This document shows positions 11,177 through 26,588 of a stretch of DNA of 26,588 bases, piece after piece. Below the pieces are notes generated by a model that saw only the letters and a list, made by a program, of their open reading frames with translations, had not been told where the DNA came from and searched no databases. The translations under genes were made by a program, and so were the position numbers. Numbering within the stretch: the first letter of the stretch is position 1; every line of letters starts with the position of its first letter. The stretch is taken from positions 1 through 26,588 of the forward strand of contig JAEOSZ010000074.1 in the NCBI GenBank assembly GCA_016840095.1, written 5' to 3'. This DNA is from Candidatus Heimdallarchaeota archaeon (GTDB taxonomy: Archaea > Asgardarchaeota > Heimdallarchaeia > Heimdallarchaeales > Heimdallarchaeaceae).

Positions 11177-11344
11177 TTATTTGTCTATTCCCATTGCAGC
11201 AGCGGATAGTTTTCGTCTCAACCTTCTACTGGTTAGTCCCCTATTTAGTTTTCTGAGAGCCCAGAAAGCAAAACCGAATACTACTCCAAAGATTGTTAAT
11301 ACTATGAATACACTAATGATTGATGGGATGACTATTGGAGCCAT
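11177..11344 (-). CDS. 55-aa single-pass membrane peptide (OadG/MmdD-like topology); not in the ORF track
   Basis: MAPIVIPSIISVFIVLTIFGVVFGFAFWALRKLNRGLTSRRLRRKLSAAAMGIDK; AGGTG Shine-Dalgarno and a TTTAAAA box upstream; obeys the positive-inside rule. Confidence 0.7.
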   Translation of the reverse strand: MAPIVIPSIISVFIVLTIFGVVFGFAFWALRKLNRGLTSRRLRRKLSAAAMGIDK

Positions 11345-11418
11345 AGTTTCTTAACACCTACACAAAGAAAATCTTATACATTTTTAAACTTTTATGTTGG
11401 AGAATTAATATCGTTAGT

Positions 11419-12162
11419 TCAGGTATTCAGATTATTTGACTGATCTATCTGAATTTCGATGTAAGAATGATTCGAAGATTCAAGTTTTAGCAATCCTGTT
11501 TCTGAAATTCCTATGCATTTGAATACAGAAGATTGGTATTCAAATTTCCTGTTTATATCCAATGAATTTTCATTGAAAAAAGAAACTAACTTCTCATAAT
11601 CTTCTGCTATAGTTAAATTAACAAAACTAAACAAGGATTCAGTAATAAGTTTTACAAGATCATCCCTTTTGACTGAATGATGAATAATATCTTCAAGAAA
11701 CACAGCTGGAATGCAATCTAGATTTTGAGAAATATCACTTTCTCGTGAAATATTAACTCCTATTCCTAATAGTAGAAAATCTGCTTTTTTAGTCACTAAC
11801 TCTATTAAAATTCCTCCCAATTTTCTATTTTTATAGTATATATCATTCGGCCATTTTACAAGAATTTCAACAGAGTAAATATTCTTGAGAACTTGTTGAA
11901 CTCCAAGAGCTGCTGCATAGTGTAAAAAACGTAATTGTATACTGTTTAGTTGTGACATAAGAGGAAATGCATAGGTCATGTAAAGACCTCCTAATGGCGA
12001 AAACCATGCTGAATCATATCTTCCTCTTCCTCTTGTTTGTTGATTTGAGATTACTAAAATTGGTTTTGCAGTATCTTCTAAGATATGATCTAAAACCACA
12101 TCCATAGTAGATGACACTTCTTTATAATGAACAGTGTTCATAGATTCAACTTTATATGCCAC
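11419..12162 (-). CDS. birA: Biotin--[acyl-CoA carboxylase] ligase (no N-terminal HTH)
   Basis: VSSTM, QTRGRGR, WFSPLGGLYMT, KWPNDIY, KLGGILIE and GIGVN motifs. Confidence 0.93.
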   Translation of the reverse strand: MAYKVESMNTVHYKEVSSTMDVVLDHILEDTAKPILVISNQQTRGRGRYDSAWFSPLGGLYMTYAFPLMSQLNSIQLRFLHYAAALGVQQVLKNIYSVEILVKWPNDIYYKNRKLGGILIELVTKKADFLLLGIGVNISRESDISQNLDCIPAVFLEDIIHHSVKRDDLVKLITESLFSFVNLTIAEDYEKLVSFFNENSLDINRKFEYQSSVFKCIGISETGLLKLESSNHSYIEIQIDQSNNLNT

Positions 12163-12258
12163 AAGACCGCTACAGAAATGGTATGTTATAAAGCTTTTTT
12201 CATTTCTTCGTCATAAATGAAGATGTTGTTTTTATTCAACTAATTTGAATGAATTATA

Positions 12259-23931: not shown

Positions 23932-24689
23932 AAATAGAAAATACCAATATTAACTTCAGAAATGAAACAATAAATGGTGTACTTTTTCTACCAAATAGAA
24001 AAAAACCTTCACCTCTTGTGATTCATCTGAATGGAATGCCTGGTTTAGAACCAGAAACTGAAGGTGAAAGATTCGCTCAAGAGTTGAACCATTTTGGTAT
24101 TGCCTACTATGCATTCGATTATACTGGAGTAAGGAACAGTTCAGGTTTGTTTGAATACTACTATTCACAAGAAAACATAAACACCATAATATCCTTTTTA
24201 GTTCATCATCCTAAGATCTTACCAAATAAAATAGCTCTACTTGGTGAAAGTTTTGGAGGGGCAATGGCTTTGTGTCATGCAGTTCGAGATTCTAGAGTAC
24301 AGTGTTTAGCAATACGATCACCAGTATATGATACTAAACAGATACCTAATCTGAAGATATTTGATGGTTTGTCTTTAATGTGGAAGTTGAATAAGCAAAT
24401 GAGATTTCCAGAAGTAAATTTGAAATCCTTCTTTCAAAATCAATCATCACATTATAATCCATCTAAATTGATATCAGAACTTAAGTGTCCAATTAGGATG
24501 ATAACTGGAACTAAAGATGAGATTCTTGATGCCAAGGAAATAGAAAAATGGTTTAAAAAACTTCCAGAAGATTTAGACAAAGACTTCCAAATTATTGAAA
24601 ATGCTGATCATAACTTCTCTAACAAAGTTCATTTTCAGAAAATGAAAAACTACATTATTGATTTCTTTAAACAGCAGTTGATTAGTTAG
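23928..24689 (+). CDS. Alpha/beta-fold hydrolase, candidate thioesterase/product-release enzyme
   Basis: GESFGG nucleophile elbow, GTKDEI Asp and NADHNF His; ATGA overlap with the synthase stop. Confidence 0.85.
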   Translation: MKIENTNINFRNETINGVLFLPNRKKPSPLVIHLNGMPGLEPETEGERFAQELNHFGIAYYAFDYTGVRNSSGLFEYYYSQENINTIISFLVHHPKILPNKIALLGESFGGAMALCHAVRDSRVQCLAIRSPVYDTKQIPNLKIFDGLSLMWKLNKQMRFPEVNLKSFFQNQSSHYNPSKLISELKCPIRMITGTKDEILDAKEIEKWFKKLPEDLDKDFQIIENADHNFSNKVHFQKMKNYIIDFFKQQLIS

Positions 24690-25167
24690 GAAGAACCTCA
24701 AATTCAACAAGTCGTTGATCTTGCTCTACATTAGCATCTTCTTTTACATAGATTTTGATTATCCTTCCTCTATCCGGAGAAAAAATTCTGTTGCGCATTT
24801 TCATAGCTTCAAGAATCATTAATTCGTGATCCTTTTCCACGATTTCTCCTTCTTTAGCTAGAATTTGAATGATTTTACCTGGAATTGGAGCTTTAATAGA
24901 GATTTTTTTCTCTTTTTGAGAATCAAGATTAATGCTTCTCTTTGGAATGTAAGGTTTAGTAGATATACTCACTTCTTCTCCATCAACAATGAAGTTGTCT
25001 TCGGTAACCTCTACAGTAAAAGTGTGTTTATTAACTGTAACTTTATAGACCGATTTTATTTCTTGATCTACTGAAGCAACAAATATTTCACCATCTATAC
25101 TTAGGTTTCCATTTGGTAAAACCTCAAATATATAGTCATTTTCATTGAGTGTTACTTTTTTCTTCAA
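24682..25167 (-). CDS. accB: Biotin carboxyl carrier protein
   Basis: IKAPIPGKI...ILEAMKMRN biotinylation motif; TTG start with a GGTG Shine-Dalgarno. Confidence 0.92.
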   Translation of the reverse strand: MKKKVTLNENDYIFEVLPNGNLSIDGEIFVASVDQEIKSVYKVTVNKHTFTVEVTEDNFIVDGEEVSISTKPYIPKRSINLDSQKEKKISIKAPIPGKIIQILAKEGEIVEKDHELMILEAMKMRNRIFSPDRGRIIKIYVKEDANVEQDQRLVEFEVLPN

Positions 25168-25184
25168 AATTTAGCACCAGATTA

Positions 25185-26588
25185 CTAATAATTTCTTTGT
25201 TGTTCTCTTTTACCTTGCTCTCTCCATCTATTGAACCCATTCATTGTATTCTTTAATCTGCTAGACTGTAGCTGCTGTCTTGACTTTACAATGCTTTGAG
25301 TTTTTAAAATTGCAGCTAGTTTTAACATTTCAAAATGTGACATGATTTCAGTTATTTTGCTTGTTTCGAGAAAATCTGTAGTAATTATTCTTTGTTGGAA
25401 TTCAGGTGATTCTACAATAGCTTTGTGAAGAGAAATATTAGTTATAACTCCAGATATTGCGAGTTCTGTTAATGCTATTCTAGATTTTGTTATTGCATCA
25501 TCACGATCATTGCCTTTAACAATGAGCTTACCCATCAATGAGTCATAGCTGTTTGAAAAACTATAATCTGGATAAATAAAAGTATCAAAACGAACCTCAT
25601 TTCCACCAGGAATGCTAAGTGCTGTTATTCTCCCAGATTGTGGGTAAAAAGATCTCAAAGGATCTTCTGCATTTATCCTAAATTCTATTGCATGGCCTTT
25701 TAGTTTTATATCTCTCTGTTTAAATGATAATTCTTCTTCGTTAGCAATTCTCAGTTGTTCTACAACAAGATCTATACCGGTTATCATTTCAGTTACTGGG
25801 TGTTCAACTTGAATTCTGGGGTTTATCTCATTAAAGTATATTTCACCATCTTTCCACAAGAATTCAGCTGTACCAGCACTGTGATATTCTAGCAGCTGAG
25901 CTAAATCACAAACTTTCTCCCCCAAGCTGTTTCTCTTTCTAGCTGATAGAAATGAAGGAGCTTCTTCTATGAGTTTCTGGTAAGAACGTTGTATAGAACA
26001 TTCTCTATCCCCAATGTGGAGAACATTATGGTGTTTATCTGCTAAAAATTGAATTTCTACATGTCTTGGAGAAGGAATGTATTTCTCGATCAATACTTCT
26101 TTATTTCCAAAGAACTTATCTGCTATAGTCTGACATCCTAGTAAACTTATTTCGAGAGATTCTGTATTATCTACAATCTCCATCCCTTTTCCCCCTCCTC
26201 CAAATGCAGCTTTAATAATTATTGGATAGCCTATTCTTTCAATAATTTTTTCAGCTTCTGTTAAGGTTGACACATATCCTTCAGAACCAGGAATAATCGG
26301 GATATCGATTTCCTTTGCTAATTTTTTTGAAGCAATCTTATCTCCCAGATTTTCTAAAACTGAAAACGAAGGTCCAATGAAAACTAATCCTTGTTCTTCT
26401 ACTTGTTTAGCAAACTCTGAACTTTCACTCAGAAATCCGTAACCAGGATGTACTGCATCTGCTCCAGAAATGAGTGCAATCTCTAAAATTTTATTGATAT
26501 TCAAGTATGTTTCTTGTACTGTACCTTTACCTAGATTGTAAGCACCATCAGCCATTTTGACATGAAGTGAATTAGAATCTTCTTCAGA
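25185..26588 (-). CDS. accC: Biotin carboxylase subunit (5' end lies beyond the window)
   Basis: HPGYGFLSE, KAAFGGGGKG, RECSIQR, EINPRIQVEHPVTE, EFRINAED and YDSLMGKLI. The frame stays open past ATG 26555 to the edge (SEEDSNSLHVKMAD), so the true start is outside the window. Confidence 0.94.
   Translation of the reverse strand, partial: SEEDSNSLHVKMADGAYNLGKGTVQETYLNINKILEIALISGADAVHPGYGFLSESSEFAKQVEEQGLVFIGPSFSVLENLGDKIASKKLAKEIDIPIIPGSEGYVSTLTEAEKIIERIGYPIIIKAAFGGGGKGMEIVDNTESLEISLLGCQTIADKFFGNKEVLIEKYIPSPRHVEIQFLADKHHNVLHIGDRECSIQRSYQKLIEEAPSFLSARKRNSLGEKVCDLAQLLEYHSAGTAEFLWKDGEIYFNEINPRIQVEHPVTEMITGIDLVVEQLRIANEEELSFKQRDIKLKGHAIEFRINAEDPLRSFYPQSGRITALSIPGGNEVRFDTFIYPDYSFSNSYDSLMGKLIVKGNDRDDAITKSRIALTELAISGVITNISLHKAIVESPEFQQRIITTDFLETSKITEIMSHFEMLKLAAILKTQSIVKSRQQLQSSRLKNTMNGFNRWREQGKREQQRNY

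Follow-up and report, generated by a model that had tools for sequence, protein, structure and literature searches.

Comparison with described synthases

The closest described counterparts of the system reported here are the 'Type R' secondary lipid synthases, identified by Shulse and Allen in 2011 in Koribacter, Solibacter, Elusimicrobium and Roseiflexus, in which a KS-MAT-CLF(KS-like)-ACPn-KR core is often adjacent to acyl-CoA carboxylase (ACC) genes (PMC3098273). Here we analyze contig JAEOSZ010000074.1 (C57) from a Candidatus Heimdallarchaeota archaeon, the whole of which (26,588 nt; hereafter, the window) belongs to a 3.44-Mb bin with 33% GC, 89% completeness and an estimated contamination of 7.8%. 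Next to ACC and birA genes, it encodes a type I fatty-acid synthase (FAS)/polyketide synthase (PKS) megasynthase with two enoyl reductase-like regions (ER* and ER), two ketosynthases (KS1 and KS2), an acyltransferase (AT), two acyl carrier proteins (ACP), a ketoreductase (KR), a dehydratase (DH) and a phosphopantetheinyl transferase (PPTase). To our knowledge, archaea are held to lack ACP-dependent fatty-acid synthesis. The enzyme probably works as an iterative type I synthase with full reduction and provides de novo long-chain acyl synthesis to the Heimdallarchaeia that carry it.

By its core domain order, the synthase appears to be a variant of the Type R Pfa-like synthases. Its KS-AT-KS-ACP-ACP-KR series matches theirs, a PPTase lies behind the core (fused here and in Myxococcota, separate in Elusimicrobiota), and among the bacteria that come closest to it (44-51% in KS1) are Elusimicrobiota and Acidobacteriota with the same GIDT-type ACP motif. 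Where the Type R work designates a chain-length factor (CLF), each of the 179 homologues checked here has an intact KS. The differences lie in the fusion of a doubled FabK-type ER and of the PPTase into one chain, in the clustering of a hydrolase, a full ACC and birA, in the archaeal host and, as a minor and variable trait, in the presence of two ACPs instead of three to six (two to five in Asgard relatives).

With PfaA-E and the heterocyst glycolipid synthases, the megasynthase shares iterative use, tandem ACPs, an FMN TIM-barrel ER and an Sfp-type PPTase. PfaA (TIGR02813) is its best NCBIfam model, but the score falls below the cut-off (855 vs 1010 bits), and the single chain, the threonine (Thr) ACPs and the lack of a separate PfaB AT also set it apart from polyunsaturated fatty acid (PUFA) synthases. 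No FabA-type DH/isomerase pair was found here, only a PKS-type DH, and hence no route to cis double bonds is apparent. Enediyne PksE synthases of the CalE8/DynE8 type contain a single KS and a single Ser-ACP, lack an ER, have a hotdog thioesterase and make polyenes; they have in common with the present synthase the C-terminal ACP-KR-DH-PPTase order and self-activation, but not its ER, second KS and alpha/beta hydrolase. Fungal FAS follows the order AT-ER-DH-MPT/ACP-KR-KS-PPT and animal FAS the order KS-MAT-DH-ER-KR-ACP-TE. A one-chain, ACP-dependent and fully reducing cycle is common to these type I FAS and to the synthase described here, which resembles the fungal enzyme in its FMN ER and built-in PPTase and the animal one in hydrolytic release. 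It departs from the fungal/mycobacterial and animal enzymes, however, in domain order and in having a PKS-type instead of a MaoC-type DH, an Sfp- instead of an AcpS-type PPTase and an FMN instead of an MDR ER.

A first-pass annotation of the window, made from the letters alone, had counted an earlier characterization of the same cluster in this lineage against its reading, and the system has in part been seen before. A 'potentially novel PKS cluster' with KS domains nearest to PUFA synthases was reported in 2020 from a Shark Bay Heimdallarchaeota metagenome-assembled genome (PMC7472256), and those KS domains (72-81% to Heimdallarchaeota proteins) very probably belong to the same system. The available parts of that paper give KS hits in one bin only, with no account of architecture, ACC/BirA linkage, distribution, Thr ACPs or lipid context (PMC7472256). 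The cluster is also present in the original Lokiarchaeum GC14_75 assembly, where NCBI labels the copy as a type I PKS. No description of the one-chain architecture in Archaea, of its spread, of Thr carriers or of a Fak link was found in the open-access literature, subscription papers lying outside our coverage.

Domain architecture and gene organization

The features of the window are collected in Table 1, where residue conservation was counted over 81-200 homologues per domain. All the checked catalytic residues of the synthase are present and almost invariant, with the exception of the N-terminal ER* barrel, in which position 143 is occupied by K, R, M, I or L in 75 homologues. The KS, AT, KR, DH, ACP, FMN-ER-like and PPTase domains pass Pfam cut-offs, and KS, AT, KR, DH and ER lie with their catalytic residues on one chain, as in ACP-dependent type I FAS and PKS. 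The AT keeps its catalytic residues in 194/194 sequences and Phe1413 in 193/194, within an xAFH motif typical of malonyl selection. KS2 is probably a second active condensing site and not a dead chain-length factor, because its Cys-His-His triad is kept in every one of the 179 sequences. No fatty-acid-type KS domains were found in the genome other than those of the megasynthase gene. The Ser-Asp-His triad of the adjoining hydrolase is invariant in nine syntenic copies, and the hydrolase is found in 27/30 genomes of the same family, 9/12 of Gerdarchaeales and 0/24 of Hodarchaeales.

Table 1. Annotated features of the window and of the domains of the megasynthase.
Feature	Position	Strand	Evidence and remarks
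asnS fragment	3-671	-	Taxonomic anchor, outside the pathway; Heimdallarchaeaceae matches
IS200/IS605 TnpB gene	5095-6405	-	NF040570 above cut-off
Secreted, C-terminally anchored DUF6259 protein and purple acid phosphatase	6901-9318 and 9540-11093	-	
55-aa hydrophobic open reading frame (ORF)	11177-11344	-	No family
birA, biotin-protein ligase without repressor domain	11419-12162	-	TIGR00121, 121.9 bits vs cut-off 83.1; divergent from CT
Acyl-CoA carboxylase carboxyltransferase (CT; PccB/AccD type), 525 aa	12259-13836	+	PF01039, E 3e-185
Iterative type I FAS/PKS megasynthase (predicted), 3,361 aa	13846-23931	+	ER*-ER-KS1-AT-KS2-ACP-ACP-KR-DH-PPTase; best NCBIfam model PfaA TIGR02813
ER*, degenerate FabK-like TIM barrel	13846-14805	+	TIGR03151, E 5e-10; catalytic His replaced
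ER, FabK-type FMN enoyl reductase, His472	14806-15915	+	Best PDB matches are FabK structures; His in 81/81
KS1, Cys920/His1054/His1093	15979-17355	+	PF00109, PF02801; triad 200/200
AT, Ser1308/Arg1333/His1414	17470-18378	+	PF00698; TIGR00128 fabD 253 bits, just under cut-off 261
KS2, Cys1824/His1972/His2012	18688-20085	+	Best PDB matches are FabF structures; triad 179/179
ACP1, Thr2175 (codon ACC at 20368)	20260-20484	+	Thr at phosphopantetheine site
ACP2, Thr2272 (codon ACT at 20659)	20554-20775	+	PF00550, E 1e-11; Thr at phosphopantetheine site
KR, NADPH motif and Lys2702/Ser2726/Tyr2739/Asn2743	21463-22245	+	PF08659; 156-157/157
DH, PKS-type double hotdog, His2866/Glu3033; not a FabA-type isomerase	22348-23160	+	PF21089 and PF14765; 146/146
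PPTase, Sfp-type, Asp3252/Glu3254/Lys3290/Glu3291	23233-23928	+	TIGR00556 above cut-off; best PDB match Sfp; 86-88/88
Alpha/beta hydrolase	23928-24689	+	Ser108/Asp197/His228 triad; probable chain-release thioesterase
Biotin carboxyl carrier protein (BCCP)	24682-25167	-	PF00364; EAMKM motif
Biotin carboxylase (BC)	25185-26588	-	5' end cut at contig end; 499 aa once joined with contig C41

The six contiguous genes listed in the first-pass annotation (birA, CT, megasynthase, hydrolase, BCCP and BC) are all in place, and so are the 9-bp gap between CT and synthase and the ATGA overlap between synthase and hydrolase on which it had based their tight coupling. The layout is nonetheless one of three strand units, birA(-), CT-synthase-hydrolase(+) and BC-BCCP(-), and not a single operon. 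Contig C41 overlaps the end of the window by exactly 127 nt and completes the BC gene, and contig C61 joins the opposite end. The same annotation had rightly seen extender supply, loading, condensation, a KR, DH and ER and a self-activating PPTase, but it had overlooked that the second KS is intact (Cys-His-His) and that both ACPs carry Thr, as well as the extra degenerate ER. Its further claim of archaeal-style signals stands for Shine-Dalgarno (SD) sites and only in part for TATA boxes. SD-like motifs precede the synthase, hydrolase and BCCP genes, with a genome-wide signal in 64% of internal operon genes vs 11% in shuffled sequence. TATA-like boxes are visible before birA and BC, not clearly before CT, and their signal is modest (21% vs 11%). 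A scan for sigma-70 promoters was uninformative.

Distribution and origin

Orthologues of KS1 are found in 40/46 other genomes of the order and in 12/12 genomes of a Gerdarchaeales family (f7, which includes the JABLTI01 assembly), in most of them as one gene. Near-universal retention as in these two groups would be unlike that of a typical secondary-metabolite cluster. A search of 24 Hodarchaeales genomes (families f5 and f6, whose GGGPS proteins have Hodarchaeales-labelled relatives) did not recover the synthase, the single match being a 421-aa ORF at 34%. Outside the class, KS1 had 15 matches in a set of 317 genomes; they fall in two families assigned to Lokiarchaeia via named members. ACC genes and birA travel with the synthase across loci: CT lies directly upstream of it in nearly all Asgard loci, and birA sits at the cluster edge in most of the Heimdallarchaeaceae, Gerdarchaeales and Loki loci examined.

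Some loci depart from this pattern. In one family (f3; L016, L023 and L083) the cluster contains a KAS III-like gene and the ER fusion is missing. In one genome of this family, a FabI-like gene directly follows the synthase that lacks the ER fusion; since it does so in that genome only, FabI was rejected as a regular stand-in for the fused ER. The closed 3.08-Mb genome G045 has its synthase split by an internal KS1-AT duplication, with PPTase-hydrolase-BCCP repeated beside CRISPR-like genes and BC missing from the locus, through either rearrangement or assembly error, while on contig C9 of genome G001 birA is separated from the main cluster by a second CT and a BC-like copy.

Bacterial relatives in the Elusimicrobiota, Myxococcota, Bradymonadales and Acidobacteriota present a KS-AT-KS-ACPn-KR-DH core, in some cases with a fused ER or PPTase. 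A tree of KS1, AT and KS2 together (LG+G4, rooted on bacterial relatives only, 25 rows with skewed composition) was built with Elusimicrobiota and Acidobacteriota relatives included and with PfaA, PksE, eukaryotic FAS and the named Type R strains left out. In it, the Asgard copies group together in a single clade (SH-aLRT 100%), within which Loki is sister to Heimdallarchaeaceae. By the approximately unbiased (AU) test, trees with a Heimdallarchaeia-only clade are rejected (p about 1e-82), and so are trees that keep the host's own order together. Two apparently archaeal sequences, P0205 and L045, fall outside the Asgard clade, although the AU test does not reject the joining of L045 (p 0.24). 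The latter, labelled 'uncultured archaeon', is a Type R synthase with N-terminal ACPs and possibly a second acquisition by archaea. The simplest reading would be a single early acquisition by Heimdallarchaeia, with bacteria carrying Type R synthases as the putative donors, and a later transfer between the Heimdallarchaeaceae line and Lokiarchaeia.

Proposed pathway and fate of the acyl chains

The pathway that we propose would begin with the biotinylation of BCCP by BirA, upon which BC, BCCP and CT would make malonyl-CoA. The C-terminal PPTase would prime both ACPs on Thr, the AT would load malonyl and KS1 would condense it, with KR, DH and FMN-ER reducing each cycle to give a saturated chain and KS2 serving as a second condensing site, for priming or for late elongation of long chains. 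The hydrolase would then release a free acid. In its more weakly supported final steps, DegV/FakB would bind this acid for phosphorylation by a FakA-like kinase, and PlsY would esterify the resulting acyl-phosphate to glycerol phosphate, probably glycerol 1-phosphate (G1P), to yield a cell lipid. As first annotated, the locus is predicted to supply its own malonyl-CoA and to reduce fully the acyl chains made from it, with intact KR, DH and ER residues and clustered ACC genes, and we consider a working malonyl-CoA-dependent synthase of reduced chains likely.

The rest of the genome offers candidates for these final steps. It contains three PlsY copies above cut-off, about ten DegV/FakB proteins and two FakA-like Dak2 genes plus a separate FakA middle domain, FakA-like genes being present in 30/30 genomes of the family; PlsX, GpsA and PlsC were not found in it. 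Homologues of PlsY and PlsC are known in Asgard archaea, with no acyl-chain source named (PMC6431249, PMC6737245), and G1P can serve as acceptor for bacterial PlsY if FakA/B provide the acyl donor (PMC13400652). In Gerdarchaeales, fakA-degV-plsY forms a consecutive three-gene run, and plsY adjoins birA in both closed Heimdallarchaeum genomes. Gerdarchaeales genomes (G071-G082) show an expansion of PlsY to 4-13 copies. Families without PlsC (f1, f2 and f7) commonly have the hydrolase, and it is rare in the family with PlsC (f3), in a comparison of few lineages. This gene content suggests, without proving it, a route from free fatty acid through acyl-phosphate to PlsY, for which PlsX would not be needed.

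As for isoprenoid lipids, G1PDH and CarS score above cut-off and DGGGPS-like proteins below it, and the search for GGGPS in this genome (89% complete) was negative, also when a hidden Markov model tuned to Asgard sequences was used. Within the class, the presence of GGGPS and that of the synthase are nearly complementary. The missing GGGPS was nevertheless not accepted as proving that lipids are replaced. GGGPS and the cluster occur together in four Loki genomes, two genomes taken to be MK-D1 and L. ossiferum have neither GGGPS nor the synthase, and MK-D1 has isoprenoid lipids (PMC7015854).

Several observations weigh against our proposal. FakA is split and below cut-off in the family, which also lacks PlsC, and no PlsY was found in Harpocratesius, which has the cluster. 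Fak and PlsY may instead serve scavenged fatty acids, since they occur in some Hodarchaeales without the synthase. Elusimicrobiaceae with a synthase also have stand-alone FabF-like and FabZ-like genes, and all Type R products are listed as uncharacterised (PMC3098273). A special long or partly oxidised chain is possible, given that the DH is of PKS type and that a second KS is unneeded for ordinary C16/C18 chains.

This last point leads to the main alternative, in which the enzymology is the same and the product and its use differ: a specialised long-chain lipid (hydroxylated, keto, unsaturated or head-to-head condensed), comparable to heterocyst glycolipid aglycones or phenolic lipids, would be a minor envelope, protein-anchor or storage component in cells with bulk membranes of isoprenoid ethers. 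The kinship with Pfa-like 'secondary lipid synthases' (PMC3098273) and the TIGR02813 match speak for it, as do the two intact KSs with a PKS-type DH, the retention of G1PDH, CarS and DGGGPS-like genes, the four Loki genomes with GGGPS and cluster and the isoprenoid lipids of MK-D1 (PMC7015854), which lacks a recognisable GGGPS. Against it stand the lack of recurrent tailoring or export genes in the Asgard loci compared, the near-universal retention in two orders together with a dedicated carboxylase, and the expansion of the DegV and PlsY families in carrier lineages. We judge this alternative rather unlikely.

Returning to the proposed pathway, the use of its chains in glycerolipids via Fak/PlsY is plausible but somewhat doubtful, and the replacement by them of the GGGPS step in bulk membranes is unlikely. 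In its full form, the proposal would have Heimdallarchaeales and Gerdarchaeales build fatty acids on Thr-phosphopantetheine and pass them via FakA/DegV and PlsY onto G1P, in place of the GGGPS step, giving acyl-ester or hybrid acyl-ester/isoprenyl-ether membranes; this we regard as improbable.

Threonine at the carrier-protein site

The weak link in reading the locus as a synthase appears to be the residue at the ACP site. Instead of the conserved Ser that usually bears phosphopantetheine in ACP-dependent FAS and PKS, both ACPs read GIDTIK, with a Thr that aligns with the modified Ser of solved ACPs. Thr occupies this site in 551 of the 580 distinct ACP domains counted across bacterial and archaeal members of the family, and Ser in 16; almost all of the remainder are decayed extra repeats. 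A single-sequence fold prediction of ACP2 reached low confidence (pLDDT 57) and was set aside. In E. coli, the S36T variant of ACP cannot be phosphopantetheinylated (PMC3340395), and priming on Thr would therefore require new enzyme behaviour, a further point against the proposed pathway. No Thr-primed ACP was found described within the same literature coverage.

It could thus be argued that the Thr-ACPs are never primed, and that the synthase uses a separate carrier or CoA esters or is a decaying relic. The phosphopantetheine site starts helix II, and a Ser or Thr there could be kept for structural reasons. Besides this and the S36T result, a stand-alone 80-aa ACP-like gene on contig C107 (C107:4292-4534) would fit such a view, but its product has Lys at the phosphopantetheine site. 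In intact repeats, moreover, no residue other than Thr or Ser occupies the site; the change to Ser is seen in several lineages, and Heimdallarchaeum combines the two within one chain; ACPs have been multiplied up to six times in the family, reading frames are intact across hundreds of homologues, and a fused or adjacent PPTase with intact residues accompanies them. We consider unprimed carriers very unlikely. Priming of Thr by the family's own PPTase is favoured over carriers that work in some other way, because that PPTase is always encoded alongside and intact.

Host assignment and neighbouring genes

The first-pass annotation had placed the cluster in an archaeal, possibly Asgard, host on the strength of an archaeal-type asnS, and the sequence matches agree. 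The AsnRS fragment is 85-91% identical to its best matches, with named Heimdallarchaeota/Heimdallarchaeaceae proteins at up to 85%, and KS1 is 86% identical to that of Heimdallarchaeota AB_125. Codon use in the synthase is host-like (B 0.17-0.23 vs a genome mean of 0.205), whereas that of the TnpB gene, inserted in an otherwise conserved gene order, is foreign (B 0.37, GC3 0.35). These values, the conserved synteny and the near-universal retention in the order bear out the description of a domesticated archaeal system, and it is virtually certain that the cluster is native and intact in Heimdallarchaeaceae. Bacterial contamination, a chimeric contig or a recent island, to which the contamination estimate of the bin and the bacterial labels of some database copies might point, is refuted to the extent of being negligible by the recurrence of the order asnS-MFS-GATase-phosphatase-birA-CT in another genus (G041), by closed Ca. 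Heimdallarchaeum and Ca. Harpocratesius repetitus genomes that contain the cluster, by its position next to eIF6, L31e and S19e on one 644-kb contig, by the distribution in the order and the codon use, and by the clustering of the 'Zixibacteria' copy with Heimdallarchaeota proteins. Copies labelled Zixibacteria, Bathyarchaeia, Methanobacteriota and Hodarchaeota (P0187, P0188, P0164 and P0159) nest inside Asgard subclades and look mislabelled.

Among the neighbouring genes, the purple acid phosphatase flanks the cluster in several relatives. The small hydrophobic ORF that adjoins birA, for which no link to the pathway was seen, has a counterpart of 79% identity in the corresponding position of AB_125; none turned up in the regions compared in G001 and G041.

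Implications

The first-pass annotation had linked the cluster to the lipid divide and to eukaryogenesis. The link to eukaryotes is weaker than envisaged: the synthase was not found in the 24 Hodarchaeales genomes, its kin are bacterial Type R synthases, and its domain order and domain types are unlike those of animal and fungal FAS. No eukaryotic FAS appears among the 60 best PDB matches to KS1. Nothing in these comparisons ties the synthase to the ancestry of eukaryotic FAS, and it is an enzyme of another kind.

The cluster is, on the other hand, a candidate source of acyl chains for the PlsY and PlsC of Asgard archaea, self-contained in a single locus and available in closed genomes (Heimdallarchaeum and Harpocratesius). 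Two questions thereby become testable, namely whether Heimdallarchaeia contain acyl lipids and whether a PPTase can modify Thr, the second of which extends to a whole uncharacterised bacterial family. If the reading with Thr carriers and PlsY acting on G1P were true, it would mean acyl-ester or hybrid membranes in close relatives of the eukaryotic host.

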